Positions 2,122 to 24,000 of a DNA stretch of 24,000 bases are shown here, piece by piece. Each line of letters begins with the position of its first letter. Position 1 is the stretch's first letter. This stretch comes from Firmicutes bacterium UBA3553 (lineage in GTDB: Bacteria; Bacillota; Clostridia; Tissierellales; Sedimentibacteraceae), in the NCBI GenBank assembly GCA_002381185.1, contig DFOA01000041.1, forward strand, positions 57,994 to 81,993, written 5' to 3'. The position numbers and the translations under genes were made by a program. The notes beneath the pieces are model-generated. The model saw nothing but the letters and a program-made list of their open reading frames with translations. It had not been told where the DNA came from and searched no databases.

Positions 2122-2137
2122 AAGGAGTGAAATTAAA

Positions 2138-3766: not shown

Positions 3767-3792
3767 AAATAACATTTAAATGGAGGTTGACT

Positions 3793-4263: not shown

Positions 4264-4301
4264 TGAACTAACCGGCTGAAATACTTATAAGGAGCAGGAA
4301 A

Positions 4302-5267
4302 ATGGCAAGATATCTTAGAAAAAGAATATTAACTGGAATTCTTGTAATTTTAGTTTCATTAGTCATAAACTTTTTATTAATACATATGGCTCCGGGAAAT
4401 CCCATCAGTCTCTTGGCGGGTAAAGACAACCCTTCTCAGGAAATGATCGATTCATTAACGGAAAAATACGGACTTAATGATCCCATACATATTCAGTTTA
4501 TCAACTATATAAAGACGCTGATGAAGGGTGATCTCGGATATTCCATAATGAGCAGTGAACCTGTAAGTAAATTAATTATCGAAAAGGTCGGACCTACATT
4601 GCTTTTATCTCTGACAGGCATAATACTGGCCTTGATAATAGGAACATCGGCAGGCATTTATGCCGCAAGGAAAAGGGGATCATTATTCGATTCCGCAATG
4701 TGCGGAGTATCGTATTTATTTGATTCCACACCGGGCTTTTGGCTTGGGCTCATGCTGATTCTTATATTCGCATCAACTCTGAAAATCCTTCCTACTGCCG
4801 GAATGGTGGATTTAAGGGCACAAAACGAAGGATTTGCAAAAGTTCTTGATATCCTTAAGCATTTAGTATTGCCTCTGACAACAGTTACTTTAATCCAGAT
4901 ACCGTACTTTTTCCGTATAGCGAGGGCATCTGTAATCCAAACCATGTCTGAAGATTACATAACTACATTCAGGGCTGCGGGAATGAAAGAAGGCAAAATA
5001 TTTAAAAGATATATATTTAAAAATTCCATGCTTCCCACAATAACAGTATTCGGTATAAACCTGGCATACGTTATATCGGGAGTTGCAATTATTGAAATTG
5101 TATTTGCATGGCCAGGGATGGGCAGGTTGATGATGACGGCAATTTCTAAAAGGGATTACCCGCTGCTTATGGGAATTTATCTTGTTCTGTCGGTTTCCAT
5201 AGCTGTCTGTATGATTGTTGTGGATGTGGTTTATGCCGTTATTGATCCGCGAATAAGATATGATTGA
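4302..5267 (+). CDS. Peptide/nickel (Opp/Dpp-type) ABC transporter permease, OppB/DppB-like
   Basis: The typical N-terminus RKRILTGILVILVSLVINFLLIHMAPGNP, six hydrophobic segments and the EAA-loop region SEDYITTFRAAGMKEGKIFKRYIFKNS. Confidence 0.9.
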   Translation: MARYLRKRILTGILVILVSLVINFLLIHMAPGNPISLLAGKDNPSQEMIDSLTEKYGLNDPIHIQFINYIKTLMKGDLGYSIMSSEPVSKLIIEKVGPTLLLSLTGIILALIIGTSAGIYAARKRGSLFDSAMCGVSYLFDSTPGFWLGLMLILIFASTLKILPTAGMVDLRAQNEGFAKVLDILKHLVLPLTTVTLIQIPYFFRIARASVIQTMSEDYITTFRAAGMKEGKIFKRYIFKNSMLPTITVFGINLAYVISGVAIIEIVFAWPGMGRLMMTAISKRDYPLLMGIYLVLSVSIAVCMIVVDVVYAVIDPRIRYD

Positions 5268-5286
5268 GATAGAGGAGGTATTAAAA

Positions 5287-6147
5287 ATGAACGGTTCAAA
5301 CAGCTTAAAAGCAAAATTTAAAAGAGCATTATCCTCCATAAACAGTGTTAAGCAGCTTAAAGCAGGGATAATCCTGCTTGCTGTAATCATTTTTCTTGCT
5401 GTGTTCGCACCTTTGCTCGTCACTCATGATCCATTTGCACTCAATGATGATATGGTAGAGCCTCCCGGAAGTGATTACATACTTGGTACAGATGGCTTAG
5501 GAAGAGATATATACAGCGGAATATTGTACGGAGCGCGCACATCTATAGTTATAGGTATTGTGGCTGCTTCTATATCCGGAATTATAGGAACTCTCATAGG
5601 AGGTGTTTCGGGATTTTACGGAGGTAAAATCGATGCGGTTTTATCTGAGGTAATAAACATATTTCTGATGATGCCAACCTTTTTCCTTATACTTATCATT
5701 GTGGCGCTGTTCGGGTCAAGCATGCTGAACGTAATGATAGTAATCGGGCTGACAACATGGACCGGAAATTCGCGGCTCATGAGAGCCCAGGCCTTGTCAC
5801 TTAAGCAGAGGACATTTGTAAAGGCTTTGGAAACTATTGGTGAGAGCAGATTTAAAATTCTGGTCAAACATATTATTCCAAACGGAATATTTCCCATCAT
5901 TGCCAACACTACCATGAACATATCAGGTGCGATACTGACAGAATCGGCATTAAGTTTTTTAGGGCTTGGAGATCCTAATATTATCAGCTGGGGACAAATG
6001 GTGTATAACGGAAAAGCATACCTTACAAACGGATGGTGGATATCAACATTTTCAGGCGCTGCTATTGTACTTACGGTTTTGACATTTTACTTAATCGGTG
6101 ACGGAATGAACAACATACTGAGTCCAAAGCTGAACGGTAATAAATAG
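5287..6147 (+). CDS. Peptide/nickel ABC transporter permease, OppC/DppC-like
   Basis: The motif GTDGLGRDIYSGILYGARTS and the EAA region ALSLKQRTFVKALETIGESRFKILVKHIIPN. The ATG at 5287 lies 8 nt after GAGGAGG. An alternative start is the ATG at 5260, which overlaps the upstream stop. Confidence 0.88.
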   Translation: MNGSNSLKAKFKRALSSINSVKQLKAGIILLAVIIFLAVFAPLLVTHDPFALNDDMVEPPGSDYILGTDGLGRDIYSGILYGARTSIVIGIVAASISGIIGTLIGGVSGFYGGKIDAVLSEVINIFLMMPTFFLILIIVALFGSSMLNVMIVIGLTTWTGNSRLMRAQALSLKQRTFVKALETIGESRFKILVKHIIPNGIFPIIANTTMNISGAILTESALSFLGLGDPNIISWGQMVYNGKAYLTNGWWISTFSGAAIVLTVLTFYLIGDGMNNILSPKLNGNK

Positions 6148-6156
6148 GAGGCTTTT

Positions 6157-7122
6157 ATGGCATTATTATCAATTAAAAATGAAAATGTGATTTATAAGGT
6201 TAAAAATAAAAATATTCATGCTGTCAATAATGTATCATTTGATATTGAACAGCAGGATTCTCTTGGCATAGTAGGAGAATCAGGCTCGGGAAAATCAACC
6301 CTTGCTTTGTCAATATTGAGATTGCTGCCACAAAAGATAACTGAAGTGAGTGGTGAGGTAATTTTTGAAGACATCAATTTGTTGGGCTTAAGTGAAAGTG
6401 AGCTTGAAAACATAAGATGGAAGGAAATTTCTGTTGTATTCCAGAAATCAATGAATTCATTAAGCCCTATCCATAAAATCGGCAGCCAGATGTCGGATAT
6501 ATATATGCTGCATAATAAAACTGCCTCCAAGGCAGAAGTAAAGAGCAAGATGCTGGAGCTTTTAGAATTGGTAAATCTGCCCCAAAGAGTGTATACAATG
6601 TACCAGCACGAGCTGTCAGGCGGCATGATGCAGAGAGTATCCATTGCACTGAGTCTGATGCATAATCCGAAGCTCATTATCATGGACGAGGCAACAACAG
6701 CTTTGGATGTTATAACACAGGGGCAGATATTAAGTGAAATAACAGAGCTTGAAAAAAGACTTAATATAACCCGTATAATGATAACCCATGACATGTCTGT
6801 GGTTGCAAATACATGCAAAAAAATTGCGGTAATGTATGCGGGATATCTCGTTGAGTTCGGGTTTGTAAAAGATATAATATCAAATCCGAAACATCCGTAT
6901 ACTCAAGGGCTTTTGAAGTCATTTCCCACATTGAAAGGCGAAAGAGGAGTTCTGAGAGGTATATCCGGTTCGTTGCCGGATTTGAGTGCTCAGCACGAGG
7001 GATGTATATTTGAAAGCAGGTGCCCGGCAAAGAAAGAGAAATGCTTAAAAGAAAAGCCCAGGACAGTCATGCTGGAAAATGGACGCATGGTAATGTGTCA
7101 TTCTGCGGGAGGAGATAATTAA
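6157..7122 (+). CDS. Peptide ABC transporter ATP-binding protein, OppD/DppD-like
   Basis: Walker A GESGSGKST, signature LSGGMMQRV, Walker B IIMDEATTALD, H-loop ITHD and a C-terminal oligo_HPY-like region KHPYTQGLL with a cysteine cluster. Confidence 0.9.
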   Translation: MALLSIKNENVIYKVKNKNIHAVNNVSFDIEQQDSLGIVGESGSGKSTLALSILRLLPQKITEVSGEVIFEDINLLGLSESELENIRWKEISVVFQKSMNSLSPIHKIGSQMSDIYMLHNKTASKAEVKSKMLELLELVNLPQRVYTMYQHELSGGMMQRVSIALSLMHNPKLIIMDEATTALDVITQGQILSEITELEKRLNITRIMITHDMSVVANTCKKIAVMYAGYLVEFGFVKDIISNPKHPYTQGLLKSFPTLKGERGVLRGISGSLPDLSAQHEGCIFESRCPAKKEKCLKEKPRTVMLENGRMVMCHSAGGDN

Positions 7123-7123
7123 T

Positions 7124-8119
7124 ATGGAAAATAATTATACTTTAGAAGTCAATAATGTCCTTAAATATTATACGCAGAGGGTAAAAGAAAAAAAACAATT
7201 CGGCGCTGTAAAAAAAACCGTCAAGGCAGTTGATGGCATAAGCTTCAAATTAGAGGCCGGAGAAGTAATAGGTGTCATCGGCGAATCCGGATGCGGAAAG
7301 TCCACATTGGCTAAGCTTCTGACAAAACTTGAACAGCCTACTCAGGGTGAAATTTTAATTAACGGAGAATCCTCTGATGAAATGATAAAAAAGGACAGAC
7401 TTAAGTACAAGAGAACGATTCAGATGGTTTTTCAAAATCCTTTTGACACATTTGACCCCAGAAATACCATAGAGAAGGTAATTGTTGAAACCTTAAAGCT
7501 GCACGGCATAGGTAAAACATATGATGAGAGAATATCAACAGCCGTCAAGGCAATGGAGGAAGTAGGGTTAACTCCCGCGGAAGATTATTTGCACAGGTTT
7601 CCTCATGAACTGTCGGGAGGGCAGCTTCAGCGCATTTCAATATTGAGGGCAATGCTGTTAAAACCAAAATTTCTCATAGCAGATGAGCCGGTTTCAATGC
7701 TTGATGTCTCGGTAAGAGCAGATATAATCAGGATGCTTCAGGATTTGGTCCATGACAGCAATGCAGCATTGATATTTATAAGTCATGATATAAATACCAC
7801 AAGATATATATCGGATAAAATAGTCGTAATGTATCTAGGGAGAATAGTTGAGTCAGGAACAACTGATTATGTATTACACAACCCTGTGCATCCCTATACA
7901 AAGACATTGATATCCAACTGCGCATCCATCGACATGGATGAAAAGACAAATATAATAAAGATAACAGGAGAACCCCCAACTCCCATCGATAACGGACCGG
8001 GCTGTTATTTTGCACCAAGATGTTATATGAAAAAAGACATATGTTTTAAAGAATATCCTAAACAAACAGTCATAGAAAATAATCATTTTGCTTCATGTCA
8101 TTTTATTAATGATAATTGA
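7124..8119 (+). CDS. Peptide ABC transporter ATP-binding protein, OppF/DppF-like
   Basis: Walker A GESGCGKST, signature LSGGQLQRI, Walker B LIADEPVSMLD, H-loop ISHD and a C-terminal VHPYTKTLI region with a cysteine cluster. Confidence 0.9.
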   Translation: MENNYTLEVNNVLKYYTQRVKEKKQFGAVKKTVKAVDGISFKLEAGEVIGVIGESGCGKSTLAKLLTKLEQPTQGEILINGESSDEMIKKDRLKYKRTIQMVFQNPFDTFDPRNTIEKVIVETLKLHGIGKTYDERISTAVKAMEEVGLTPAEDYLHRFPHELSGGQLQRISILRAMLLKPKFLIADEPVSMLDVSVRADIIRMLQDLVHDSNAALIFISHDINTTRYISDKIVVMYLGRIVESGTTDYVLHNPVHPYTKTLISNCASIDMDEKTNIIKITGEPPTPIDNGPGCYFAPRCYMKKDICFKEYPKQTVIENNHFASCHFINDN

Positions 8120-8175
8120 TTTATTAATACGAATAGAAAACTTTTAAGTTTTCCAATATAAATTAGGAGGAGAAA

Positions 8176-9789
8176 ATGAAAAAAATATCTTTATTATTGG
8201 CAGTCTGTCTAATCATGGGAATGCTTGCGGGATGCGGCAGTACCAGCACGGGAAATGAGGCTCCGGCAAGCGAGCCGAAAACATCGGCTGATAACTCATC
8301 AGTAGACACACCTAAAAAAGGCGGAACATTGATAGTGGGAATGACTGGTGACCCTGCAACCTACAATCCGGATTTTCAAGCTGATGGATACTTGCAGCCA
8401 ATTGCGGAAAATATCTTTAACAGATTAGTAAAAATAACAAATGAACAAAAGATAGTACCTGACTTGGCTAAAAGCTATGAAATATCTGAGGATGGAAAAG
8501 AAATAACATTTCACTTAAATGAAAATGTTAAATGGCATGACGGAGAAGCATTCTCATCAGCAGACGTAAAATTTACATTTGATACTATCATCAGCCAAAA
8601 CGGACAACTGGCAGGATCGTTGACATCTGTGGAGGAAATAACCGCACCGGATGACAACACGGTTGTATTTAAGCTTAAAAACAATGATTCTTCACTGCTT
8701 GGATATCTGGCATGGGATGCATGCTACATTATACCTAAGCATATCTATGAAGGAAGCGACTGGGGTACAAACCCTGCAAATCAAAATCCTATAGGAACAG
8801 GACCTTTTAAATTTGTAAAACACGAAAAGGGTGTAAGTGTCACTCTCGAAAGATTTGACGATTATTGGGGAGATGTGGCGTATCTGGATAAAGTAATTTT
8901 TTCTATAATTCCGGATGCAAATACAGCGGTTCAAGCCTTGTATAACAATGAGCTGGATGTGTTGGGAATAGAACCGCCTCTGTCTGAAATACAAAGGTTT
9001 CAATCTGATTCAAACCTTAAAATCGGTAAGCAGTATTGGCCATCCAGATATTATGTGTTTTTTAATGTAAAAGACAGCATGTTTGCCAATGAAAAGTTAA
9101 GACAGGCTGTTTCACTTGGTATTGATAAGGATGATATAATCAAAAAGGCATTAAAAGGCGTAGGCGAAAGATCCAATACTGCTATGACTCCTGTATACGA
9201 CTGGGCCTTGAACACCACTGATGTATTTCCGGAAAGAGATGTTGAAAAGGCAAGACAGCTTATAGAAGAAGCCGGCTACAAGGCAGATTCAAACGGTATA
9301 TATTTCAGCGCATCCTTTGATGTGTTCAATATTGAGCCTTTTCCTGATATAGCAGCCATATTGAAGGATAATTTAAAAGAAATCGGTATTGATGTTAAAA
9401 TCAATGTAATGGAAGGTGCTGCCTGGGATGAAAAGGTGTGGTACGGAAGAAATTATGAATTTTCGCTGCTTGCCGGATATCAGGGACCTGATCCTGGAGC
9501 ACTTAAACCAAGATTCGCAACTGATGAAGTTATTAATTTAATGGGTTATTCAAATCCGAAGGTTGATGAAGTTCTGACCAAGGGTGCAGCATATGTAGAA
9601 CAGGATGAAAGAGCACCGTACTATAAAGAAGCCCAGAAGTACATTGTTGAAGATGTTCCCATAGTTCCAATATCAGAATATATATCTGTCATACCGTATC
9701 AGTCATATATTATGGGACACCCCACATCGGAAGAGGCTATAGATAAAACCGGATTCCATGAATACACTTATGTTTGGCTGAACAAATAA
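8176..9789 (+). CDS. ABC transporter substrate-binding lipoprotein, family 5 (peptide/nickel)
   Basis: Signal peptide with lipobox LAGC (Cys20) and a Ser/Thr/Pro-rich linker. The body shows typical SBP_bac_5 features (GGTLIVG..., KWHDGEAFSSADVKFTF, ERFDDYWG). Strong RBS AGGAGGAG. Confidence 0.9.
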   Translation: MKKISLLLAVCLIMGMLAGCGSTSTGNEAPASEPKTSADNSSVDTPKKGGTLIVGMTGDPATYNPDFQADGYLQPIAENIFNRLVKITNEQKIVPDLAKSYEISEDGKEITFHLNENVKWHDGEAFSSADVKFTFDTIISQNGQLAGSLTSVEEITAPDDNTVVFKLKNNDSSLLGYLAWDACYIIPKHIYEGSDWGTNPANQNPIGTGPFKFVKHEKGVSVTLERFDDYWGDVAYLDKVIFSIIPDANTAVQALYNNELDVLGIEPPLSEIQRFQSDSNLKIGKQYWPSRYYVFFNVKDSMFANEKLRQAVSLGIDKDDIIKKALKGVGERSNTAMTPVYDWALNTTDVFPERDVEKARQLIEEAGYKADSNGIYFSASFDVFNIEPFPDIAAILKDNLKEIGIDVKINVMEGAAWDEKVWYGRNYEFSLLAGYQGPDPGALKPRFATDEVINLMGYSNPKVDEVLTKGAAYVEQDERAPYYKEAQKYIVEDVPIVPISEYISVIPYQSYIMGHPTSEEAIDKTGFHEYTYVWLNK

Positions 9790-9859: not shown

Positions 9860-11248
9860 GTGAATATAAATAAAATAGTAGAAAATGTTCCGGATTACAA
9901 GGTATTTTTAACCGTTGATGAGATGGATGAAAGTACCCTTCAACTTCAAAGAGATTATCCAGAAGTTGTGGAAGTTTTCGAAGCAGGCAGATCAAGAGAA
10001 AATCACCGTATATTATGTTTGAAAATCGGCAAAGGAAAAAAGAACGCTCTTTGTTTTGCCTGCCCTCATCCAAATGAACCCATAGGGGTAATGACACTGG
10101 AATATTTGTCAAGGGCACTGGCTGAGGATGATGAATTCAGGGAATCAACAGAATATACCTGGTATATAATCAAATGTGTTGATCCTGACGGAACAAAGTT
10201 AAATGAAAACTGGTTTAAAGGACCATTCAATATCTATAATTATATGAAAAATTATTTTAGGCCTGCAAGCAATAAACAGGTAGAATGGACGTTTCCCATA
10301 GATTATAAGAAGCTCCATTTCAATGATGCACTTCCTGAAACGAAGGCAATAATGGATATTATAGAAAAAACAAGGCCGGAATTTATGTATACTTTGCATA
10401 ATGCAGGTCTTTGCGGAGCCTATTGGTACATAACTCATGAATATGACGACATATATGATGAACTAAGGAAAACAGCACTGAAAAACGGCGTTGCCCTTCA
10501 ACTGGGAGAGGCGGAAAGTCCTGCATGTATAAAGCTTTCAGATGCAATTTACAAAATGTCCGGCATATCTGAAGAATATGATTATTTGGAAAGATATTCG
10601 GACATCCCTCCAGAAAAAATATGCCAGGGAGGTACCAGCAGTTCTGATTATGCATCAAGATACAATGATTGTGTGACGCTGATGACTGAACTGCCGTATT
10701 TTGCAGATGACAGAATATCGGACTCTTCACCTGCGGATATAACAAGGAGACAGTCCATAAGAGATAAAATAAAAAATACGGTTGAGCATTACAGAGGGCT
10801 GGATAGAGAATTGAGCAAGGTCAGAAAGTATATTGTTCCGGATAATCCGTTTGTCTTGCTTGTGGAACAGATTATCGCAGGATTGGATTCTTCCACTGAT
10901 GCTCAAATGAAGTGGTCGGATAATCCCGAATTCGAAAGGCCTGCGAAGGTGTCGGAAGTATTTGACAATGAGCTGGTAAGCAAATTTTATAACAGTCTTT
11001 CAACAAGTCTTTCTGCAAGAGCTTGCCAGTATGAGCTGGACAGGCTGAAAAAAGAGGGATGTGAAGACAATGAAGCATCTCATCAGCTGCAGGAAGTATA
11101 CGAAGTACTGTCGAAGAACCTGAAGAATGAATGCGAATATCTTGAAAACAAATTAAATTATAAGGTTGTGCCTATACGTGATCTTGTGAGGATTCAAATA
11201 GAATGTGGTTTGATTGTAGCAAGCCGCAGGCAAAAAAATAAGAATTAA
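9860..11248 (+). CDS. M14-like zinc carboxypeptidase/amidase family protein (462 aa)
   Basis: HxxE zinc motif in CFACPHPNEPIG, a later YTLHNAG candidate third ligand, and no signal peptide (cytoplasmic). The GTG start lies 6 nt after GGAGG (9849-9853). There is no terminator between it and the SBP gene. Confidence 0.6.
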   Translation: MNINKIVENVPDYKVFLTVDEMDESTLQLQRDYPEVVEVFEAGRSRENHRILCLKIGKGKKNALCFACPHPNEPIGVMTLEYLSRALAEDDEFRESTEYTWYIIKCVDPDGTKLNENWFKGPFNIYNYMKNYFRPASNKQVEWTFPIDYKKLHFNDALPETKAIMDIIEKTRPEFMYTLHNAGLCGAYWYITHEYDDIYDELRKTALKNGVALQLGEAESPACIKLSDAIYKMSGISEEYDYLERYSDIPPEKICQGGTSSSDYASRYNDCVTLMTELPYFADDRISDSSPADITRRQSIRDKIKNTVEHYRGLDRELSKVRKYIVPDNPFVLLVEQIIAGLDSSTDAQMKWSDNPEFERPAKVSEVFDNELVSKFYNSLSTSLSARACQYELDRLKKEGCEDNEASHQLQEVYEVLSKNLKNECEYLENKLNYKVVPIRDLVRIQIECGLIVASRRQKNKN

Positions 11249-11265
11249 TAGATAAATGAATAAAT

Positions 11266-11312
11266 AAAACACTCCTACTAACAATAATAAAAAAATAAAT
11301 AGGAGTGTTTTT
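11266..11312 (+). terminator. Putative terminator ending the peptide operon
   Basis: 12-bp perfect stem AAAACACTCCTA (11266-11277) / TAGGAGTGTTTT (11300-11311) with an unusually long A-rich 22-nt loop. The right arm also supplies the AGGAG RBS of the next gene. Confidence 0.5.
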
Positions 11313-11314
11313 AT

Positions 11315-11557
11315 ATGCCAGAATATTCAGGAAGAGTTGATATACGTGCAATTATGCCGCACCAGGATAAATATCCTACTGTCCACAAAACCTTTGAATC
11401 TTTAAATGCAGGTGAAAAAATGGAGCTCATAAATGACCATGACTTTAAGCCTATTTTCACATACAAATTCCCAGATGATTTTCCCGGTCAATATGAATGG
11501 AACTATTTAGAGCAAGGGCCTGAAGTGTGGAGGGTGGAGATTAAAAAAATAAGGTAA
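11315..11557 (+). CDS. DUF2249 domain-containing protein (80 aa)
   Basis: The size and pattern DIRAI.PHQDKYPTVHKTFESLNAGEKMELINDHDFKPI...GPEVWRVEIKK match my memory of the DUF2249 (SirA/TusA-like fold) family. Confidence 0.6.
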   Translation: MPEYSGRVDIRAIMPHQDKYPTVHKTFESLNAGEKMELINDHDFKPIFTYKFPDDFPGQYEWNYLEQGPEVWRVEIKKIR

Positions 11558-11572
11558 ATTACATTTTACCTT
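11551..11572. terminator. Short hairpin spanning both stop codons of the convergent DUF2249 / YkvI genes (possible bidirectional terminator)
   Basis: AAGGTAAA (11551-11558) / TTTACCTT (11565-11572) with a 6-nt loop, flanked by AAAAAAAT upstream and TAAATTTT downstream. Confidence 0.4.
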
Positions 11573-12641
11573 TAAATTTTGCAGATATTTTACCATTGAA
11601 TCTGGTATGGATAAAACATATCAGAAGTACAATTCCGCCATAACCGACCAACGGGTATAAATATTTGACCAAATTTGAAAATCCGAACTGACTTGCCAAT
11701 AAAGCAGCTATAGTAGATACTGCAACAATTATAATACTATTTAATGAAAATTTTTGTATGTCAGTGATTCTGGATGCAAATCCGTATAAAGAACCTACTG
11801 CGGTTGTATAAATTTCAGCTATCAGAACCACAGCATATGCCAACTGTACGGGGTAGGATATTCTTCCCGCCACATAAATCATGGGGACTTCAAGATTAGC
11901 AATTTCTGAAATGCTTCCGCTCAGTGCAAGATAAATCATAACAGACCCTAATCCAAGCCCGAGTCCTCCCAGGATAGCCCCTTTTTTTACAGCCTCTTTG
12001 TCTTTTGCTTCGGATCCAAGCGGCCCCAGCACCGCGACGGAAAGTATAATGTTGTATGATACATACAAGACCGAAGACAAAAACCAGTTGCTTATGATTC
12101 TGTTCTCTGCGAAGAGTGCTGATGAAGATGTAAAATCAGGCGGGGAAACGGAAATTGAAAATAAACTTGTTCCGATGACTGCCGTTAACAGAAATGGAAC
12201 CACAAAGCTGATAGAATTAATTACACCGTTTATGCCTGTTAATACAGTTACCGCTGTCAGAACTGCCATGAGTATATTTCCTATCAGGCGCGGTAAATTA
12301 AATTGCTGGGTGAACAAAGCACCGGTGCCGGCTATCATTGCCGTAAAAGATCCGAAAAGAAAGAAAGTAATCAGTGAGTCTATTATCGTACCCATTATCC
12401 TGCTGCTGGAATGCCTTATGATTTCAACATGGGAACGGGCACCCAGCTTTTTTCCTAAATCCATTACAATATATCCGAACAATATAAACATTATTGTGGT
12501 AACTAATATACCTGCCAGCCCCATTAGCCCGAACCTTGTAAAAAACTGCAGTATTTCCTGTCCTGTTGCGAAACCGGCTCCGACTATTGTTCCTATGTAT
12601 GTTGCTGCAACCTTCAGCGCTGAGACCTTTTTTTTGCTCAT
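11559..12641 (-). CDS. YkvI-family polytopic membrane protein (putative transporter of the amino-acid/spore-germination permease type)
   Basis: The N-terminus MSKKKVSALKVAATYIGTIVGAGFATGQEILQFF is characteristic of YkvI-like proteins, and there are about 10-11 hydrophobic segments. The start was set to the ATG at 12641 (AAAGGA 9 nt upstream). The track start at 12671 has no RBS. Confidence 0.6.
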   Translation of the reverse strand: MSKKKVSALKVAATYIGTIVGAGFATGQEILQFFTRFGLMGLAGILVTTIMFILFGYIVMDLGKKLGARSHVEIIRHSSSRIMGTIIDSLITFFLFGSFTAMIAGTGALFTQQFNLPRLIGNILMAVLTAVTVLTGINGVINSISFVVPFLLTAVIGTSLFSISVSPPDFTSSSALFAENRIISNWFLSSVLYVSYNIILSVAVLGPLGSEAKDKEAVKKGAILGGLGLGLGSVMIYLALSGSISEIANLEVPMIYVAGRISYPVQLAYAVVLIAEIYTTAVGSLYGFASRITDIQKFSLNSIIIVAVSTIAALLASQFGFSNLVKYLYPLVGYGGIVLLICFIHTRFNGKISAKFKGKM

Positions 12642-12747
12642 CCTGCCACATCCTTTCAACCTATATAACATTGTATAAGGTATAAGGATTTTTATGACTT
12701 AACGTACAGCAAAAGATACGCATGCCGGATATTATCATGTCTGAAAT

Positions 12748-13302
12748 TCAATCAGCCATGGATTTGTAAACTTTTTGAACTGTATTGATATTCCTTGAAG
12801 TCAGCAGATTTTTGTATTTTTTGTTTCCAAGTACCTTTGAGCCGAAATAACTTTTAAGGGTATCACCCTTTGATACAATCCAAAAAGTACCGGCTTCAAG
12901 TATAACCAATTTCTCGTTCGGCATATGTGACACAGAATCAAAAAGATTCTTCAATTCCGGGGACAGCTCCTTGTCGTCATACAATAAGCAATAATTGTGG
13001 AATCCCTCCGGTACATCAATTGTTTGAGCGGCAGCACATATTTCATAAATTTCTTTATTATTGAGTATTATAACATGAGCATCATAATGAAAACATTTAC
13101 TCAGCTCTTCTTCAATAAAAGATTTTAATTTTTGCCTGCAGCTGTTGCATTCGGATAAAAATATAATTACATTTCCTGTTGCAAGTATTGTCTTGACATC
13201 CTGAAATCCCATTTTACAAAAGGTTTCTTTCAGAGCACTCATTTTTATGTTAATTCCATTCACATTAATTCCACGAAGGAATACACAATATTTTTCTCCC
13301 AT
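12748..13302 (-). CDS. DUF1697 domain-containing protein
   Basis: The N-terminal YCVFLRGINVNGINIKMSALKE motif and a length of about 180 aa are typical of DUF1697. The RBS GGTGA overlaps the stop of the upstream GNAT gene, indicating translational coupling. Confidence 0.7.
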   Translation of the reverse strand: MGEKYCVFLRGINVNGINIKMSALKETFCKMGFQDVKTILATGNVIIFLSECNSCRQKLKSFIEEELSKCFHYDAHVIILNNKEIYEICAAAQTIDVPEGFHNYCLLYDDKELSPELKNLFDSVSHMPNEKLVILEAGTFWIVSKGDTLKSYFGSKVLGNKKYKNLLTSRNINTVQKVYKSMAD

Positions 13303-13307
13303 TTAAA

Positions 13308-13847
13308 TCACCATTCAGAACGGAGCAATCTATATGCAACGCGATCCTTAAACATTCCATCATGCCATTGATATTCTTTGAATTCTGCTTCTTTTATCAT
13401 TCCGCATTTTTGCATTACTCTTTCCGAGGCTTTATTTTCTTTTAAACATCCGCATGAAATTCTGAATACGTCATTTTCAAAAGCAAACTGAATCACTTTT
13501 TTTAGCGCCTCTGCCGTATACCCAAGCCCCCAGTATTTGTCACGTATAAAATATCCCACTTCAACATGTTTCCCGGCAGGTGTAAACTCTAAAACCGTAT
13601 ATCCTATTTCACCTATGTGTTCATTTGTCAGCTTGTTTTCTATTCTAAAAAAATAATACCTTCTGTCAGTACATCCGATTTGATCAATTGCCGTACGCAA
13701 ATTAGCTTCAGATTCTTCTATGCTGTCTGTTACTATATCCTGCAAAAACCACATTGCTTTTTTATCAGAAAGCAATTCATGGTGTGATGCAAGGTCTGCG
13801 CTTGTGTGGTCGCGAATTAAGAGTTTGTCGGTACATAATTGAATCAT
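13308..13847 (-). CDS. GNAT-family N-acetyltransferase (RimJ/RimL-like)
   Basis: LLIRDHTSADLASHHELLSD..., the acetyl-CoA pocket region YWGLGYTAEALKKVIQFAF and the C-terminus CGMIKEAEFKEY...DRVAYRLLRSEW. The ATG at 13847 lies 5 nt after GGAGG. The track ATG at 13859 overlaps that SD. Confidence 0.85.
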   Translation of the reverse strand: MIQLCTDKLLIRDHTSADLASHHELLSDKKAMWFLQDIVTDSIEESEANLRTAIDQIGCTDRRYYFFRIENKLTNEHIGEIGYTVLEFTPAGKHVEVGYFIRDKYWGLGYTAEALKKVIQFAFENDVFRISCGCLKENKASERVMQKCGMIKEAEFKEYQWHDGMFKDRVAYRLLRSEW

Positions 13848-14049
13848 ATATGCCTCCATTTCAATATGTAAATTATAAATTTATTTTATTATAAACCATG
13901 CAATAAGCTAAACACAACCGCATTTTATAGCATTTTGAGAAATTCAGTAAATATTGTTTCGTCAATCCATACTAATCCTTCTTTTGTTTTTGAAATACAT
14001 TGCTGCTGCAATACATTGGAATACTGAAAATCCCAGGAAACAATTTTTC

Positions 14050-14077
14050 TTGAATATTCAATGAAATTTGATATAAT
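14050..14077 (+). promoter_or_regulatory. Sigma-A type promoter for the upstream GGDEF gene
   Basis: TTGAAT (14050-14055), a 16-nt spacer with an extended -10 TG (14069-14070), then TATAAT (14072-14077). This implies a leader of about 160 nt. Confidence 0.55.
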
Positions 14078-14245
14078 ATAATTAGATGATTATTTATACA
14101 GGTTTTTGCCTTATTGAAAAAGGGTGTATATGGTAACAAATAAATTAACAAACGGATTATTTCCGGAAAATAAGAACATTTATATGAAAGATCAATGAAA
14201 ATAACGTGTAAACATAAAAAGGTTCCGGAAAGAAGGGAATAGATA

Positions 14246-15415
14246 TTGACATCTTCTGTCATAGATATGAGAAGCACTTCAATTATTATAGTGATAGGGC
14301 ATATATTAGCAGTTGTACTGCTGGCTTCATATGCCATACAACCCAAAAGCAAAAATGAACCTGTGAAAATATATCTTCAAGCTAAGTTAATTCAGTGCAT
14401 TGGCTGGATAATGCTTTTACTGAGGGGCTATATATCTGACATTCTCTCCATTTCAGTTGCCAATTCCGTATTTTTTATCGGCGTAGCGGCTGAAATGACT
14501 GCTTACCTGGTTCTAAGCGGCAATTATAATAAAAGAATAAAACAATATAATTATATTTTCATTAGCGGCTATATCCTTATTTTTAATCTTGTGACAGTAT
14601 TTTATAATATTGAGAGCATAAGAGTATTAACAGCATCATTATTAACCTCATTATTGATGATATATCCCACCTATAAAATTATTAGTGAAAAAAATTCCTC
14701 TGTGCTGCAAAAGATAATGTGTGTTTTTTTAATTATAACGATTATTATATGGCTTGTTCGGGCGTATCTGGCTGTCACTATACCATATTCCTTGAATTTC
14801 TTATTTACTGATTATCCTAATACATGGATATTTTTTGCAGTGTCCATAGTTATACTTACAGGAAGTACAGGATTTATACTCCTGGCTAAGGAAAAGCAGG
14901 ACGCAGAAATAAAAAAAGCCGCATGCTTTGATGAACTTACCGATATATTGAACCGAAGGACCTTCATACTGCGTTTCAAAGAATCTATTTCAATGTTGCT
15001 AAGTAAACATGAATTTCTTTCGTTTTTACTTATAGATATTGATGATTTTAAAAATGTAAATGATACCCACGGACATTATGTGGGAGACATTGTACTGAAA
15101 TCCTTTGCGGATATAATAAAAAGCAATCTGAGGGAATACGATTTGTTCGGAAGATACGGAGGTGAAGAATTTGCCGTTATGCTTCCCGGAGCTGATGAAA
15201 AAGAATCACTTGAAATAGCCGAAAGATTAAGAAAGGCAGTAGAAAATTCCTCGCCTGATTTTACTCAGGAAATAAAGTACACTGTAAGTATAGGTGCCGT
15301 GACTATTGCCGCGGATAGGGATATCAATTTAGAGATGCTTTACAAATTAAGCGACAAAGCACTCTACAAGGCTAAGGAGCAAGGCAAGAATCAGGTTGTC
15401 GGAATCAAAGTTTAA
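14246..15415 (+). CDS. Membrane-anchored diguanylate cyclase (multi-pass N-terminal domain + GGDEF domain)
   Basis: About 210 aa of 6-7 hydrophobic segments, followed by DELTDILNRR, IDIDDFKNVNDTHGH, RYGGEEFAV (GGEEF at 15158-15172), the I-site REYD five residues upstream (15131-15142) and DKALYKAKEQGKNQV. The TTG at 14246 lies 8 nt after GAAGGG. An alternative start is the ATG at 14267. Confidence 0.9.
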   Translation: MTSSVIDMRSTSIIIVIGHILAVVLLASYAIQPKSKNEPVKIYLQAKLIQCIGWIMLLLRGYISDILSISVANSVFFIGVAAEMTAYLVLSGNYNKRIKQYNYIFISGYILIFNLVTVFYNIESIRVLTASLLTSLLMIYPTYKIISEKNSSVLQKIMCVFLIITIIIWLVRAYLAVTIPYSLNFLFTDYPNTWIFFAVSIVILTGSTGFILLAKEKQDAEIKKAACFDELTDILNRRTFILRFKESISMLLSKHEFLSFLLIDIDDFKNVNDTHGHYVGDIVLKSFADIIKSNLREYDLFGRYGGEEFAVMLPGADEKESLEIAERLRKAVENSSPDFTQEIKYTVSIGAVTIAADRDINLEMLYKLSDKALYKAKEQGKNQVVGIKV

Positions 15416-15458
15416 AGCTACATTAATATTTTCATAATGTTAATGTAGCTTTATTATT
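15414..15458 (+). terminator. Rho-independent terminator after the first GGDEF gene
   Basis: 13-bp perfect stem AAAGCTACATTAA (15414-15426) / TTAATGTAGCTTT (15440-15452) with a 13-nt loop, followed by ATTATTT. It overlaps the stop codon. Confidence 0.7.
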
Positions 15459-15525
15459 TAAGAGGACGCATTTAGTTAATGAAGTTTACATATCTTATGT
15501 ATTTTTTTACCTATACTAAAAAGCG

Positions 15526-15554
15526 TTGTGTTTTTCCGCATGTAATGATATAAT
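15526..15554 (+). promoter_or_regulatory. Candidate promoter of the agr-type operon
   Basis: TTGTGT (15526-15531), a 17-nt spacer with an extended -10 TG (15546-15547), then the consensus TATAAT (15549-15554). It lies 39 nt upstream of the ATG at 15593. Confidence 0.5.
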
Positions 15555-15592
15555 TTGCTAATAAATTATGTCTATAAAGTAGGAGAAATTAT

Positions 15593-16045
15593 ATGTTGCA
15601 TCAACCATTATATTCATTGTTTATTAGAATGATTCCTGAAGCTTTTTTGATAATGCATTCAATTTGTCTGCTGACTGCTTCACATAAAGATTTAAAAAAA
15701 ATATCAACTGCTGCTGTTCTAGGAGGAATTGGAGTATATATAGTAAGGCTGATGCCAATTCATTTTGGGGTACATACAATTTTGTCAGTTATGATTGATA
15801 TACTATTGGTTGTAAAAATACTTGATATTAATATACAAAAAGCTATATCAGGAACACTAATATCAATAATTATAATTTTTATGTCTGATATAATTCTTTT
15901 TGCAATTTATACAAATGTTTTTCACTTTTCATCCGAAGTAATTGCGGGACAAACAATTGTATCTGTTATTTCAGGAATTCCTTCCCTGATTATATTTTAT
16001 TTTATAATACGAGCAGTTGTATATGTAAAGGAAAAGAGGTTTTGA
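15593..16045 (+). CDS. Small polytopic membrane protein (150 aa, about 5 TM), unknown function, first gene of the agr-type operon
   Basis: RBS AGGAG 7 nt upstream and five hydrophobic segments by eye. The stop TGA (16043-16045) lies 1 nt before the agrB GTG, indicating translational coupling. I recognise no catalytic motif. Confidence 0.7.
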   Translation: MLHQPLYSLFIRMIPEAFLIMHSICLLTASHKDLKKISTAAVLGGIGVYIVRLMPIHFGVHTILSVMIDILLVVKILDINIQKAISGTLISIIIIFMSDIILFAIYTNVFHFSSEVIAGQTIVSVISGIPSLIIFYFIIRAVVYVKEKRF

Positions 16046-16046
16046 T

Positions 16047-16712
16047 GTGAGCAGAATTGAAATGTTTTCAAAATTTATTGCTTCTAAAATCTCAAAAAAT
16101 TTGTCTGTTGACAATGAGCAAGAAGAAGTTATTGCTTATGGTGCCTTTGCATTGATACAAACAATGGTATCCATATTGGCCGTTGCTGTCTTCGGCATTA
16201 TTTTTGATGTGCTGCTGGAATCACTGCTTATTTCTTTTTCGGCAGCGACCTTAAGAAAATTTTCGGGAGGAGCACATGCCACTGCACCAATGAGCTGTGC
16301 ATTAATTGGCATGTTTGTGTTTGGAGTACAAGCTCTTTTTGTTAAGCATTTTATTATAAATTTTAGTTTAATACATTTATTATTAATTATGATTGCAGCA
16401 TTTACATTTGTTTTTTATATTATGTTTAAATACAGTCCGGTGGGTTCTGCTAATAAACCGTTAAAAAAAGAAGCAGTCAGGAGACGCTTAAAAAGGCAGT
16501 CGATAAGCTATGTTATTTTCTTATTGCTGGTAAATGTTGTATTGACAGCTATATATATTAAAACAAAAAACATTTGTTTGGTTTCTGCGGCATCTTGCAT
16601 CACAGCAGGAATTGTATGGCAATCTGTTACTTTGGTATCTCTGGGACATTTAATTATAGAAACTCTGGATAAGGCATTAAGAGGTACAATTTCAGCAAGG
16701 AGGACAAACTAA
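16047..16712 (+). CDS. agrB: AgrB-family accessory gene regulator B (membrane cysteine endopeptidase that processes and cyclises AgrD)
   Basis: The hallmark LRKFSGGAH(77)ATAPMSC(84), with His and Cys 7 residues apart as in the S. aureus AgrB catalytic pair. There are about 5-6 TM segments and a basic loop KPLKKEAVRRRLKRQS. The GTG start lies 7 nt after AAGAGG, and the gene is followed directly by an AgrD-type ORF. Confidence 0.9.
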   Translation: MSRIEMFSKFIASKISKNLSVDNEQEEVIAYGAFALIQTMVSILAVAVFGIIFDVLLESLLISFSAATLRKFSGGAHATAPMSCALIGMFVFGVQALFVKHFIINFSLIHLLLIMIAAFTFVFYIMFKYSPVGSANKPLKKEAVRRRLKRQSISYVIFLLLVNVVLTAIYIKTKNICLVSAASCITAGIVWQSVTLVSLGHLIIETLDKALRGTISARRTN

Positions 16713-16849
16713 TGAAAAAAAACTTAGTATTAAAGGTTATGACTTTGGCTGCAGGTATGTTGACATTTTTAGCAACAACTACTACAGCTTCTGCATGCTG
16801 GTGGGGAATTTATCAGCCGGAAGAACCGAAATCATTAAGAGAAGAGTAA
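16712..16849 (+). CDS. agrD: AgrD-type autoinducing peptide precursor, 45 aa (not in the supplied ORF track)
   Basis: My translation is MKKNLVLKVMTLAAGMLTFLATTTTASACWWGIYQPEEPKSLREE. It has an amphipathic/hydrophobic leader, a Cys followed by 4 residues (CWWGI), and an acidic tail QPEEPKSLREE almost identical to the C. perfringens AgrD tail as I recall it (..SACLWFTHQPEEPKSLRDE). Strong SD AAGGAGGA (16697-16704) 7 nt upstream. The ATG overlaps the agrB stop (TAATG). Confidence 0.9.
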   Translation: MKKNLVLKVMTLAAGMLTFLATTTTASACWWGIYQPEEPKSLREE

Positions 16850-16850
16850 A

Positions 16851-16875
16851 AGGAGGTCTTTAATGACCTCTTTTT
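16851..16875 (+). terminator. Weak hairpin / leaky terminator between agrD and the GGDEF-HD-GYP gene
   Basis: GAGGTC (16853-16858) / GACCTC (16865-16870) with a 6-nt loop, then TTTTT (16871-16875). The stem is only 6 bp, so partial read-through is plausible. Confidence 0.45.
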
Positions 16876-16895
16876 AGGTATCGCAAAGGTGAAAT

Positions 16896-18593
16896 ATGAA
16901 TAAATTTGATATAAACAGAAAGCAGAAATTATATGAAATGATATCGGTTTTAAAGCTGATATCATTGATGATATGTGGAATTGTAATTTTTGCGCAATAT
17001 CCGGCAGATGTTTTCAATGTTCAATTTAACTTGGCAAAAAACGGAGGAATTATTTTCTTCAATTTTGTATGTGTGGCTGTATTTGTTTTAATAAGTGAAG
17101 GATGGTTATATTCTGTAAAAGAAAGTCAAGCTATTTCAAAAATTAATCTGAGAGGGCTAATAGAAAATTTTATACTGATATTTATATATACAACACTGAT
17201 ATTTATATCCGGATTTCATGAAAGCCAATATAAATTTTTATATTTATTTATTATTATTGCAAACACCATCCAATATGGTATGAAAATAGGTATAGCCACC
17301 GCAATTTTAAATTCTCTTACAATTTTAGCAATTGATATCATAGGAGTTGAGTACGGTATTATTAACAAGTATTTCGAATCAGACCTGGTGATGTCGGGCG
17401 TGTTTATTATAGTGGCATGGATGTTAGGCTACTATGCAAATTTAGAAAATGAATACAGAGATAAGGCTGTGCATTTAGTGAATGTAGACGAATTAACCGG
17501 TGTTTACAATCACAGGTATTTTCAGAACATTCTATCAGAACATATAGATAAAGCGTCGGAGAATAATAAAAGTATATTTCTGCTGTTCATAGACATAGAT
17601 CATTTCAAATATTACAACGATCTTTACGGACATAGTGCAGGAGATGTTGTGCTGGGCAGTATTGGCGAGGTTTTAAAGAAAAATGTAAGAGAACAAGATG
17701 TAGTCGCACGATACGGTGGTGAAGAATTTGCTGTAATATTGCCTGATGTCTCAGAAGAGGAGGCCTTCAATATAGGAAACAGATTGAGGGATGCAGTTGA
17801 AAACACTTATTTTGATGGTGAAGAAAACCAGCCTAACGGTAAAATAACCATATCAGTAGGAGTATCCTCCTATCCTTTAAAGGCAAAAACTAAAAAGGAA
17901 CTTATTAATACCGCAGATGATGCGCTGTACCGGGCTAAGTTTTTTAATAAGAACAGGGTTGAAAGCTATTATTCAGTGTTGGAAGAGTTAAAATCAGATA
18001 TTGATGAACAGCATATTGATTTGATAAGTTCAATAAAAACATTAATAAGCGTCATCAATGCAAAAGACCGGTATACATATGCCCATACAGACAGAGTTGT
18101 AATTTACTGCGAATTAATGAGTCATCACTTAGGGCTGGGCGATAACGACAAGAAGCTTTTACGATACGGTGCGTATCTGCACGATATAGGCAAAATACAA
18201 ATATCAAAAGATATATTAATTAAGAGAACCAGATTAAGTGATGAGGAGTGGAAGATTCTTAAAGAGCATCCGGCAAATGGTGTGGATATAATAAAGACAG
18301 TATCTGCACTCAAGGATGTTTGTCCCATTATACTTCATCATCACGAGCGTTATGATGGAACTGGGTATCCTGAAGGCCTAAAGGGTGAAGAAATTCCTTT
18401 TCTGGTAAGAATTTTAAGCATTGCTGACAGTTTTGACGCCATGACTTCCAACAGGCCTTACAGTCAAAGGAAAAGCTATGATGAGGCTGTGCAGGAAATT
18501 AAAAACTGCGGCGGATCTCAGTTTGATCTGGAAATTGTAAATGAATTTATTAAAATGCTGGATGAAAATAAAAATAAACTGGATTTTATTTAA
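16896..18593 (+). CDS. Membrane-anchored bifunctional c-di-GMP enzyme: about 6 TM sensor region + GGDEF diguanylate cyclase + HD-GYP phosphodiesterase
   Basis: About 185 aa of hydrophobic segments. The GGDEF domain shows DELTGVYNHRYF, IDIDHFKYYNDLYGH, RYGGEEFAV (17715-17729), I-site REQD and DDALYRAKFFNKNRV. The HD-GYP domain shows YTYAHTDRV, GAYLHDIGK and HHHERYDGTGYP (18336-18371). Confidence 0.92.
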   Translation: MNKFDINRKQKLYEMISVLKLISLMICGIVIFAQYPADVFNVQFNLAKNGGIIFFNFVCVAVFVLISEGWLYSVKESQAISKINLRGLIENFILIFIYTTLIFISGFHESQYKFLYLFIIIANTIQYGMKIGIATAILNSLTILAIDIIGVEYGIINKYFESDLVMSGVFIIVAWMLGYYANLENEYRDKAVHLVNVDELTGVYNHRYFQNILSEHIDKASENNKSIFLLFIDIDHFKYYNDLYGHSAGDVVLGSIGEVLKKNVREQDVVARYGGEEFAVILPDVSEEEAFNIGNRLRDAVENTYFDGEENQPNGKITISVGVSSYPLKAKTKKELINTADDALYRAKFFNKNRVESYYSVLEELKSDIDEQHIDLISSIKTLISVINAKDRYTYAHTDRVVIYCELMSHHLGLGDNDKKLLRYGAYLHDIGKIQISKDILIKRTRLSDEEWKILKEHPANGVDIIKTVSALKDVCPIILHHHERYDGTGYPEGLKGEEIPFLVRILSIADSFDAMTSNRPYSQRKSYDEAVQEIKNCGGSQFDLEIVNEFIKMLDENKNKLDFI

Positions 18594-23108: not shown

Positions 23109-23840
23109 ATGAGCGCGGTAGAAAGATCATATTCATTTTTATATAAAAAGGTTGTAAAAGCTGTAAATCCATTAAAAAAGAAGGTTATAAAAACCGAATG
23201 CATAGTCCATAAATTTATAAACAATCAGGCTATTGAAATACTTAAAAACGATAGGCACGATGAAATTTATGGCGAACTTTCAAAATATATAGATAATATT
23301 AACGAAGGTGCAGTATGGGCAGATCAGGATTTTAAAAGCAGTAATCACTTTTTTAATCCAAATACAAAAAAGGGGTTATATGGAAACAGTAATGCAAAAA
23401 TAGAGTGCATTGCTTATTATAAACGTGCAATAAAAGAATATTTGCAGGGAGATGTGAAGACAGCTATGTTTTATTTAGGTGCAGCCTGCCATTTGATTCA
23501 GGATTTGACCATACCCCAGCATGCAAACGTGGAGCTTCTCCATAGTCACAGGGCTTATGAAAACTGGGTTATTAAGATGCACAACAAACAGCAGAAATTC
23601 AAGGTGCAAAAAGGAGGAATATATCTTAATTCAATAGAAGGATATATTTATTTAAACACTAAATATGCTCTGGAAACTCACAGGAAATATTCCTGTATTA
23701 AAAACGAACACATGAGATTCCATAAAACCACATCAGTTGTATTGGTTATGGCGCAGAAAACCACGGCAGGATTAATGTATAACTTTTTCTATGACATGCA
23801 AAGATTGAAAGCAATAAAAGCATACAAGGAGAATAAGTAA
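23109..23840 (+). CDS. Zinc-dependent phospholipase C family protein (alpha-toxin N-domain-like), no signal peptide
   Basis: A ligand-like pattern VHKF ... WADQDF ... SNHFFNP ... ACHLIQDLTIPQHA (H-x3-D-x5-H) ... HRAYE. The ATG at 23109 lies 5 nt after GGAAGG. The track ATG at 23049 abuts the upstream terminator and has no RBS. Confidence 0.65.
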   Translation: MSAVERSYSFLYKKVVKAVNPLKKKVIKTECIVHKFINNQAIEILKNDRHDEIYGELSKYIDNINEGAVWADQDFKSSNHFFNPNTKKGLYGNSNAKIECIAYYKRAIKEYLQGDVKTAMFYLGAACHLIQDLTIPQHANVELLHSHRAYENWVIKMHNKQQKFKVQKGGIYLNSIEGYIYLNTKYALETHRKYSCIKNEHMRFHKTTSVVLVMAQKTTAGLMYNFFYDMQRLKAIKAYKENK

Positions 23841-23862
23841 ATTTTATTATTTTAAATACTTA

Positions 23863-23891
23863 TTGACAAAGCGTAACTGGTTACATATAAT
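23863..23891 (+). promoter_or_regulatory. Consensus sigma-A promoter for the next (truncated) gene
   Basis: TTGACA (23863-23868), an exactly 17-nt spacer, then TATAAT (23886-23891). It lies about 72 nt upstream of the ATG at 23963. Confidence 0.7.
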
Positions 23892-23916
23892 AAAAATGTA
23901 ACCAGTTACGCTTTTT
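23868..23916 (+). terminator. Perfect 15-bp inverted repeat + T-tract: terminator of the PLC-like gene and/or operator overlapping the promoter
   Basis: GCGTAACTGGTTACA (23871-23885) / TGTAACCAGTTACGC (23897-23911) with an 11-nt loop that is the -10 box. It is flanked by AAA and TTTTT. Confidence 0.6.
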
Positions 23917-23962
23917 GATTAAAACATTTGCAGCGAAAATAAATTTAAATAAGAGGAAAATA

Positions 23963-24000
23963 ATGAATGATATTATAGAAAAAGCACATATTTTTGGGTC
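23963..24000 (+). CDS. 5' end of an unidentified CDS (MNDIIEKAHIFG...), truncated by the window edge
   Basis: The ATG lies 5 nt after AAGAGGA (23951-23957), downstream of the consensus promoter. Only 12 codons are visible. Confidence 0.35.
   Translation, partial: MNDIIEKAHIFG

Follow-up and report, generated by a model that had tools for sequence, protein, structure and literature searches.

Agr peptide signalling is the model of Gram-positive quorum sensing, in which a peptide acts on the AgrC kinase and AgrC acts on AgrA. Many clostridial agrBD loci are found without agrCA, so the receptors of these loci are an open question. A locus of this kind lies in a stretch of 24,000 nucleotides from Firmicutes bacterium UBA3553 (contig DFOA01000041.1, positions 57,994 to 81,993), which is called the window here. 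Which protein receives the peptide in such a locus? An earlier note on the window described agrBD between two membrane enzymes of cyclic di-GMP (c-di-GMP) turnover, and suggested that the peptide signal is converted directly into c-di-GMP synthesis or hydrolysis. In our analysis, the downstream enzyme, a 565-aa protein with a membrane domain, a GGDEF domain, and an HD-GYP domain (16896-18593), is probably the cognate receptor of the secreted cyclic peptide, judged from comparative sequence data. Synteny, a sensor shared with kinases, and a divergent allele block support the suggestion for this enzyme, but not for the upstream one.

The classical receptor was searched for in the window itself. 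Window proteins were scanned with Pfam, and none of those scanned had a domain of a histidine kinase, a receiver, or LytTR. The other open reading frames (ORFs) of the window matched Pfam-annotated genes of a collinear relative, contig L001 (the L numbers are our locus labels), and none of these was a kinase, receiver, or LytTR gene. The two sources agree with the earlier note that agrC and agrA are absent from the 24 kb.

The four-gene module and its recurrence in Clostridia

Four genes on the forward strand make up the module, i.e., a small membrane protein, AgrB, AgrD, and the 565-aa protein. AgrB (16047-16712), the membrane cysteine peptidase that cyclises AgrD, matched PF04647 in Pfam search with E=1.5e-38 over model positions 2-185 of 185. 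Its catalytic H77 and C84 are placed in RKFSGGAHATAPMSC, in the motif RKFSGGAH77ATAPMSC84. The AgrD precursor (16712-16849, 45 aa) starts with an ATG overlapping the agrB stop codon (TAATG). It was assigned to NCBIfam TIGR04223 (E=1e-12, 47.9 bits against a cut-off of 19), whereas no Pfam family was found at E<=1, including PF05931, which the earlier note had expected. The predicted thiolactone ring is C29-W-W-G-I33, followed by the recognition tail YQPEEPK. The small protein (15593-16045, 150 aa) has about five transmembrane (TM) helices and belongs to an unnamed family, with no match in Pfam, NCBIfam, and PDB sequence searches. All five ORFs of the earlier note, i.e., these four and an upstream GGDEF gene discussed below, were present at their coordinates with their motifs, including the H77/C84 numbering and the TAATG overlap.

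The 565-aa protein starts with a six-helix TM sensor domain (aa 1-185, 16896-17450). The GGDEF diguanylate cyclase domain follows at 17481-17954 (PF00990, E=1.7e-47) and the HD-GYP c-di-GMP phosphodiesterase domain at 18039-18533 (HD_5, PF13487, E=3.8e-39), as the earlier note had assigned them. The GGEEF active site has an RxxD I-site, REQD, five residues upstream (REQDVVARYGGEEF), and the HD-GYP domain carries HDIGK and HHHERYDGTGYP. Among 30 orthologous receptors, GGEEF and HD[IV]GK were found in all, HHE..DG.GYP in 29, and the I-site in 24. In 58 orthologs, the catalytic motifs of both enzyme domains were nearly invariant. The 28-residue segment linking the two domains was the most conserved part of the receptor. 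Both catalytic sites are intact; both activities, with their regulation, are predicted. In public annotation, the receptor is a generic diguanylate cyclase and the small protein is a hypothetical protein.

AgrB-homolog neighbourhoods were fetched for eight loci with AgrB identity of 51-78%. All eight had the four genes in the same order and on the same strand, i.e., a ~150-aa protein, AgrB, AgrD, and a ~565-aa GGDEF/HD-GYP protein, and the genes flanking the module were unrelated from locus to locus. The linkage of agrBD to a TM-GGDEF/HD-GYP gene, which the earlier note had seen in one genome, is therefore conserved. The module gaps were 46-70 nt, and 34 nt in L021. By full-length search with the 565-aa protein, homologs over 100% of the length and with 53-58% identity were found in C. 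sporogenes, C. botulinum, C. aceticum, Geosporobacter, Crassaminicella, Tepidibacter, and many others. The four-gene module recurs in about 30 loci, including Sedimentibacter, Tepidibacter, Crassaminicella, C. sporogenes, and C. botulinum.

Species-representative genomes were also scanned with the small-protein alignment, and the 41 loci obtained were classified by hidden Markov models built from our own alignments. A receptor with the shared membrane domain follows the small protein in these loci, except for L019, in which the sequence ends after agrB, and L042. As output domains, about 29 of the receptors carry GGDEF and HD-GYP, and about 17 are kinases. Receiver genes were not detected in the examined flanks of nearly all modules. 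Three loci had one, and these look like separate two-component systems. An AgrC-type kinase occurs at L035. A canonical-type agrD-agrC(HATPase_c_5)-agrB cluster lies there at 159-2330, about 3 kb upstream of the GGDEF/HD-GYP module, so that two kinds of agr system occur in one genome; another such case is L045 at 1617-2267. The putative AgrD of the canonical cluster in L035 has no Cys (SFGSV), which suggests a lactone.

The C. sporogenes locus (L010) has its GGDEF/HD-GYP ortholog directly after the small-protein, AgrB, and AgrD set, with two further units a few kb downstream. Between the window and L010, the small proteins matched with E=5e-14, the AgrB proteins with E=3e-52, and the receptors with 55% identity over the full length. 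Three tandem units are found in the Group I C. botulinum, C. sporogenes, and C. tepidum loci (L010, L027, L030, L032, and L049). Unit 1 is composed of the small protein, AgrB, AgrD, and the GGDEF/HD-GYP protein; unit 2 of the small protein and a PAS-HisKA kinase without agrBD; and unit 3 of the small protein, AgrB, AgrD, and a PAS-HisKA kinase. No linked receiver gene was found in the examined flanks of these units, and the kinases therefore appear to be orphans. As a speculation, they might phosphorylate Spo0A directly.

The small protein is the most constant partner of the receptor. In 53 loci, each module has a homolog of it upstream, and these loci include the receptor-only pairs without agrBD. 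In three loci without agrB (L024, L031, and L026), agrD is still found between the small-protein gene and the receptor gene. Where agrBD is absent, i.e., in C. aceticum L012, in L050, and in the unit in the middle of the C. sporogenes-group region, the receptor gene still lies beside that of the small protein, and these pairs look like receptor-only "listening" units. Because the pair persists without agrBD, the small protein travels with the receptor and not with AgrB. P15-E16, R52, P55, I56, G59, H61, and P130 are invariant in the small protein, and H57 and S131 are kept in at least 90%. By analogy, E16, R52, H61, and the near-invariant H57 would fit either a co-receptor or a metal-dependent peptidase comparable to MroQ. 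The small protein was also considered as a paralog of the sensor domain and this was rejected (hhalign probability 0.3%). Its structure prediction alone was unusable (predicted local distance difference test, pLDDT, 57).

The six-helix sensor and the divergent allele block

The sensor, i.e., the first ~190 residues of the receptor, was aligned with the N-terminal TM domains of PAS-HisKA kinases of C. sporogenes with 36-46% identity (E=1e-31 to 1e-40). The genes of these kinases directly follow either agrD2 or a small-protein gene. In an exhaustive phmmer search with the window membrane domain against 1.84 billion representatives, only 126 proteins were found at E<=1e-3. In a census of 55 near-full-length members, 29 were HisKA kinases and 26 were GGDEF+HD-GYP proteins. 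The same sensor is thus joined to two kinds of output.

The earlier note had also supposed that one or both of the multi-TM N-terminal domains, or the small 5-TM protein, may take the place of the AgrC sensor. In function, this may hold for the six-helix domain downstream of agrD, but by descent it does not. The domain was compared with the sensor of the genuine AgrC-type kinase beside the second agrB in L035 (HATPase_c_5, SPOB_a), and the hhalign probability was only 0.08%. The sensor is not AgrC-like by descent and would be a stand-in in the functional sense. A model of the sensor made by AlphaFold2 from the ortholog alignment had six helices (pLDDT 80.5, predicted template modelling score 0.75), and helix 6 continues into the GGDEF linker. 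In PDB sequence searches with the sensor and small-protein profiles, no match was found at E<=10. Among 38 orthologs, the entropy reached 2.1 bits in the predicted extracellular loop 1 (aa 34-50 in the window protein), while TM4, TM6, and both catalytic domains were conserved (0.4-0.6 bits).

AgrD orthologs vary only in the ring, i.e., CWWGI, CWFGI, CIWGL, CWFGL, and CWWGM, and the C-x4-YQPEEP pattern is kept in 35 modules. The ring goes with the output class of the receptor. All 30 GGDEF/HD-GYP-linked rings were C-x-[WFY]-x-x, with W, F, or Y at ring position 3, whereas this position is mostly aliphatic in kinase-linked rings. In C. aestuarii (L028), two AgrD-like ORFs were found, one upstream of the small-protein gene (4642-4779, ring CTFFA) and one in the normal position (6113-6265, ring CFFFS).

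The window is collinear with L001 over 15 kb, and the DNA identity is 98-100% except at 15416-17440, where it falls to 61-89%. This hypervariable block, a candidate pherotype region, extends from the promoter-proximal spacer through the small protein, AgrB, and AgrD to the receptor sensor. Both edges are sharp. The left edge is just past the stop codon of the upstream GGDEF gene, and the right edge is at the junction between the membrane domain and the GGDEF domain of the receptor. Inside the block, protein identity and synonymous divergence (dS) were 61% and 1.17 for the small protein, 78% and 0.61 for AgrB, 89% and 0.53 for AgrD, in which the ring changes from CWWGI to CWFGI, and 72% and 0.80 for the receptor membrane domain. 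The catalytic half of the receptor showed identities of 100% (GGDEF) and 97% (HD-GYP) with a dS of 0.125, and the flanking genes had a dS of 0.00-0.08. The synonymous divergence in the block is more than 10 times that of the flanking genes, and the ratio of nonsynonymous to synonymous divergence (dN/dS) is about 0.2 across it. Because the divergence is confined to the block and dN/dS is about 0.2, the block represents an old, functional, and divergent allele in a near-identical background.

The same pattern was found elsewhere. Two other lineages show a difference of 4-7% in the catalytic domains and of 38-40% in the sensors. Between Clostridium sp. FAM 1755 and C. tepidum (L027 and L030), a divergent stretch extends from the AgrB C-terminus to TM1-4 of the receptor, and a less marked form of it is seen in the kinase-type module of the same region. 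Different strains thus have old alleles of the whole signal-plus-sensor block that diverge from one another, and these probably define pherotypes. As a separate observation, in the close pairs L008 and L017, and L014 and L017, the small proteins show a difference of ~31%, by far the largest of any component, against only 4-12% for AgrB, AgrD, and the sensor. It may be that the small protein is a diversification hotspot of its own. At 23585-24000 of the window, the identity to L001 falls again, from about 97% to about 83%, and this second divergent stretch is unrelated to the agr block.

Expression, proposed circuit, and alternatives

The module has a predicted promoter of its own at 15526-15554, with a -35-like TTGTGT (15526-15531), a 17-nt spacer, and an extended -10, TGATATAAT (15546-15554). 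The TTGT and TG-TATAAT positions were invariant in 8/8 related loci with unrelated upstream flanks, and no conserved direct repeats of LytTR type or AgrA-box type were found upstream of the promoter in these eight loci. The four genes would accordingly be read as one operon, i.e., the small 5-TM protein, AgrB, AgrD, and the 6TM-GGDEF-HD-GYP protein, with co-transcription as the likely mode of expression. Feedback by a c-di-GMP riboswitch was considered and rejected; when all 24 kb were scanned with Rfam at E<=1, there were only three sub-threshold chance matches and no riboswitch.

Directly 3' of the agrD stop codon, a terminator- or attenuator-like hairpin was found at 16847-16876, AAAAGGAGGTC-TTTAAT-GACCTCTTTTT. 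The earlier note had described a weak 6-bp element in this gap. This description was not upheld, as the element folds to a 12-pair stem with a dG of -18.5 kcal/mol and a z of -4.5. An equivalent hairpin was found after agrD in 19/19 loci examined, with a different sequence and the same structure, often flanked by A-tracts and U-tracts. The receptor start codon is placed ~20 nt past the hairpin, which leaves no room for a promoter. Read-through from agrD to the receptor gene is thus plausible, as the earlier note had thought, and the hairpin looks like an intrinsic terminator. Partial termination would be the most economical reading, by which the signal genes are expressed more than the receptor.

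The circuit that we propose with the 565-aa protein as receptor would run as follows. AgrB, by its family membership, would cyclise AgrD to a five-residue thiolactone (ring CWWGI), which would then be exported. The six-helix membrane domain would sense the peptide, probably together with the small 5-TM protein, and the variable extracellular loops would make the main contacts with it. Helix 6 would relay a conformational change to both the GGDEF dimer and HD-GYP. Because this helix is directly continuous with GGDEF, the bound peptide would alter how far c-di-GMP synthesis (GGEEF) outweighs its hydrolysis (HD-GYP), or the reverse. The pheromone would be turned into a second-messenger change within one protein, without a kinase or a response regulator. 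The hairpin after agrD would probably pass only part of the transcripts and keep the receptor scarcer than the signal-making genes.

Several points weigh against this circuit, and they are given here together with the rival explanations. It may be that agrBD is an orphan pair with an unlinked two-component receptor, as VirS/VirR, and that the GGDEF/HD-GYP gene is merely co-expressed and senses something else. In C. perfringens (VirS/VirR) and C. difficile, it is established that orphan agrBD loci have their receptors at a distance. Clostridial agr systems of this orphan kind have been discussed previously (PMC2706048; PMC10602386). The canonical agrD-agrC-agrB cluster, with its AgrC-type kinase, lies close to the module in some genomes (L035), so that an AgrC-type receptor may also exist elsewhere in the genome of the window, and the conserved hairpin between agrD and the enzyme gene resembles a real intrinsic terminator, which would uncouple the receptor gene from agrBD if termination were efficient. 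However, an unlinked receptor leaves several things unexplained, i.e., the end of the block exactly at the sensor/catalytic junction, the presence of the same sensor on kinases in the post-agrD position, the place of AgrD by the receptor after the loss of agrB, and the correlation of ring chemistry with the output class of the receptor. We regard this explanation as unlikely.

Somewhat more doubtful still is self-monitoring inside the membrane, in the manner of PilS. The 6-TM domain would then respond to AgrD before its processing, to the activity of AgrB, or to the small protein, and c-di-GMP would report signal production and not population density. Some orthologous sensors pass the Pfam threshold of 6TM_PilS (PF25323, cut-off 27), i.e., P0096 with 32 bits and P0128 with 27.5 bits, and 9/55 family members match the model; the window receptor itself had no match at E<=1. 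The small membrane protein and the receptor always occur as a pair, and intracellular and TM positions vary too, with intracellular loop 1 almost as variable as extracellular loop 1 in the 38 orthologs. The block could reflect co-adaptation among the membrane proteins, i.e., AgrB, the small protein, and the sensor, and not with the peptide, since co-divergence of membrane partners would give the same allele block. Three points concern the proposed circuit in general. The small protein is inside the block as well, and linkage alone could explain part of the divergence. The divergence of the sensor was compared with that of AgrB, AgrD, and the small protein in a partial Mantel test, with the divergence of the catalytic domains as control; significance was obtained in both directions, and the test did not discriminate. 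Foldseek of the sensor against PDB gave nothing significant that points to a peptide-binding sensor, with the ImcA diguanylate cyclase (membrane domain, E=0.09) as top match. Against self-monitoring, the strongest variability is in the predicted extracellular loop, and the pairs of receptor and small protein without local agrBD (C. aceticum L012 and the second C. sporogenes-group pair) fit an external peptide better.

The earlier note had joined both flanking GGDEF enzymes, of 389 and 565 aa, with agrBD in a single peptide-to-c-di-GMP circuit. The upstream gene (14246-15415, forward strand) encodes a multi-pass membrane protein with a GGDEF domain (PF00990, E=1e-43; RYGGEEF, REYD), and both genes are on the same strand with intact GGEEF and I-site. 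However, the symmetric bracketing does not hold. A terminator-like hairpin with an 18-bp stem (15413-15453) closes the upstream gene and separates it from the module. The gene is outside the hypervariable block with 99.7% nucleotide identity to L001, the identity being 100% across the allele boundary, and it was found only in the near-identical relatives L001 and L002, being absent from L003-L009 and all more distant loci. Its TM region did not align with the receptor sensor family. By these comparative data, the two-enzyme circuit is already largely refuted and very improbable, and the upstream gene is best read as a neighbour, an independent unit outside the agr module. Its N-terminal domain had no Pfam match, and a weak GdpS-like NCBIfam alignment covers aa 100-385.

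The assignment of the 565-aa protein as receptor can be extended to a larger proposal. This protein would belong to a new Gram-positive peptide-pheromone receptor family, with a 6-TM sensor unrelated to AgrC and an obligatory 5-TM partner, which couples thiolactone peptides to c-di-GMP turnover or to orphan HisKA kinases and has long maintained strain-specific pherotypes; the GGDEF/HD-GYP protein would be the missing agr-1 receptor of C. botulinum and C. sporogenes. For the whole of this proposal, we hold the arguments for and against to be evenly balanced.

The remaining genes of the window are unrelated and include those of an ABC ATPase, an RpiR regulator, peptidases, and an Opp-type transporter. 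At 4302-9789, all parts of an Opp/Dpp-type oligopeptide ABC transporter were found (two permeases, two ATPases, and SBP_bac_5), preceded by an M20 peptidase and the RpiR regulator, and no link to the agr module was seen. On the reverse strand at 11559-12671, a 370-aa polytopic membrane protein without Pfam match is kept in L001.

Comparison with known systems

The module shares several features with staphylococcal agrBDCA. AgrB has the catalytic His and Cys, AgrD has a Cys with a four-residue ring and an acidic C-terminal tail, and the receptor gene is immediately downstream of agrD. As in the staphylococcal specificity groups, the divergent block covers AgrB, AgrD, and the receptor sensor and ends at the junction of sensor and output. 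However, AgrC (HPK10 kinase) and AgrA (LytTR regulator) are missing from the window, the sensor belongs to another six-helix family, as the AgrC comparison above indicates, and the output is GGDEF+HD-GYP and not phosphotransfer. The module also has an extra, obligatory 5-TM protein, and its promoter lacks AgrA-box repeats.

In Clostridia, the C. sporogenes region in L010 is presumably the agr-1/agr-2 region of Cooksley et al. 2010. Its first agrBD set is followed by the gene orthologous to the window receptor and its second by the kinase version. In C. botulinum and C. sporogenes, agr-1 reportedly affects sporulation, and the earlier agr studies in these species and in C. perfringens are said to have treated the flanking genes as being of unknown function. 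In C. perfringens, the hypothetical genes upstream of agrBD are co-transcribed with it (CPE1563-CPE1562-agrB-agrD), and the only complementing agrBD construct carried them (PMC2706048). A gene for a DUF5317 membrane protein precedes the small-protein gene in Clostridium sensu stricto loci (L010 3951-4502; L035 4335-4886) and is absent from the window; it may be a counterpart of the two upstream C. perfringens genes. The window differs from all of these loci in its allele and in its host, an uncultured Sedimentibacter-like member of Tissierellia.

The module is common among Clostridia and occurs in the group of C. sporogenes and C. botulinum, which gives it a broader meaning. It offers a concrete candidate receptor for clostridial agrBD, the same sensor being used on orphan kinases as well, and the receptor question becomes directly testable in tractable species. 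If the proposal is true, it would be, to our knowledge, the first link of ribosomal cyclic-peptide pheromones to c-di-GMP in a single protein. Both the sensor family and the accessory protein would be new, pherotype polymorphism would extend outside staphylococci, and there would be a handle on the control of sporulation, toxin, and biofilm in Clostridia that are pathogens or are used in industry.

PilS detects pilin inside the membrane. It resembles the receptor in having six N-terminal TM helices on a signalling protein, and a minority of the orthologs pass the cut-off of its model. PilS is a kinase. The module has no link to pilin, except in L007, where it sits among pilus genes. There, the module is inside a type IV pilus/pseudopilin cluster (N_methyl, PilM_2, VWA; 1128-7478 and 10774-14366), which hints at pili as a possible c-di-GMP target.

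The closest functional analogues are RpfR and RpfC/RpfG. RpfR of Burkholderia is a one-component PAS-GGDEF-EAL receptor for the fatty-acid signal BDSF, and in Xanthomonas the kinase RpfC acts on the HD-GYP regulator RpfG. In these systems, a quorum-sensing signal is likewise connected to c-di-GMP turnover, in a single polypeptide for RpfR and by an HD-GYP domain for RpfG. However, they use fatty acids in Gram-negative bacteria and a cytoplasmic PAS domain or a phosphorelay. The module combines a ribosomal cyclic peptide, a membrane domain proposed to sense it, and GGDEF+HD-GYP without PAS or EAL, in Gram-positive anaerobes. In a search of a paper library, no description of an agr-linked GGDEF/HD-GYP receptor was found, and none giving the GGDEF/HD-GYP protein the receptor role. 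What is new here is the coupling of Agr signal production to a non-AgrC sensor with a second-messenger output, which is widespread and not specific to the window.

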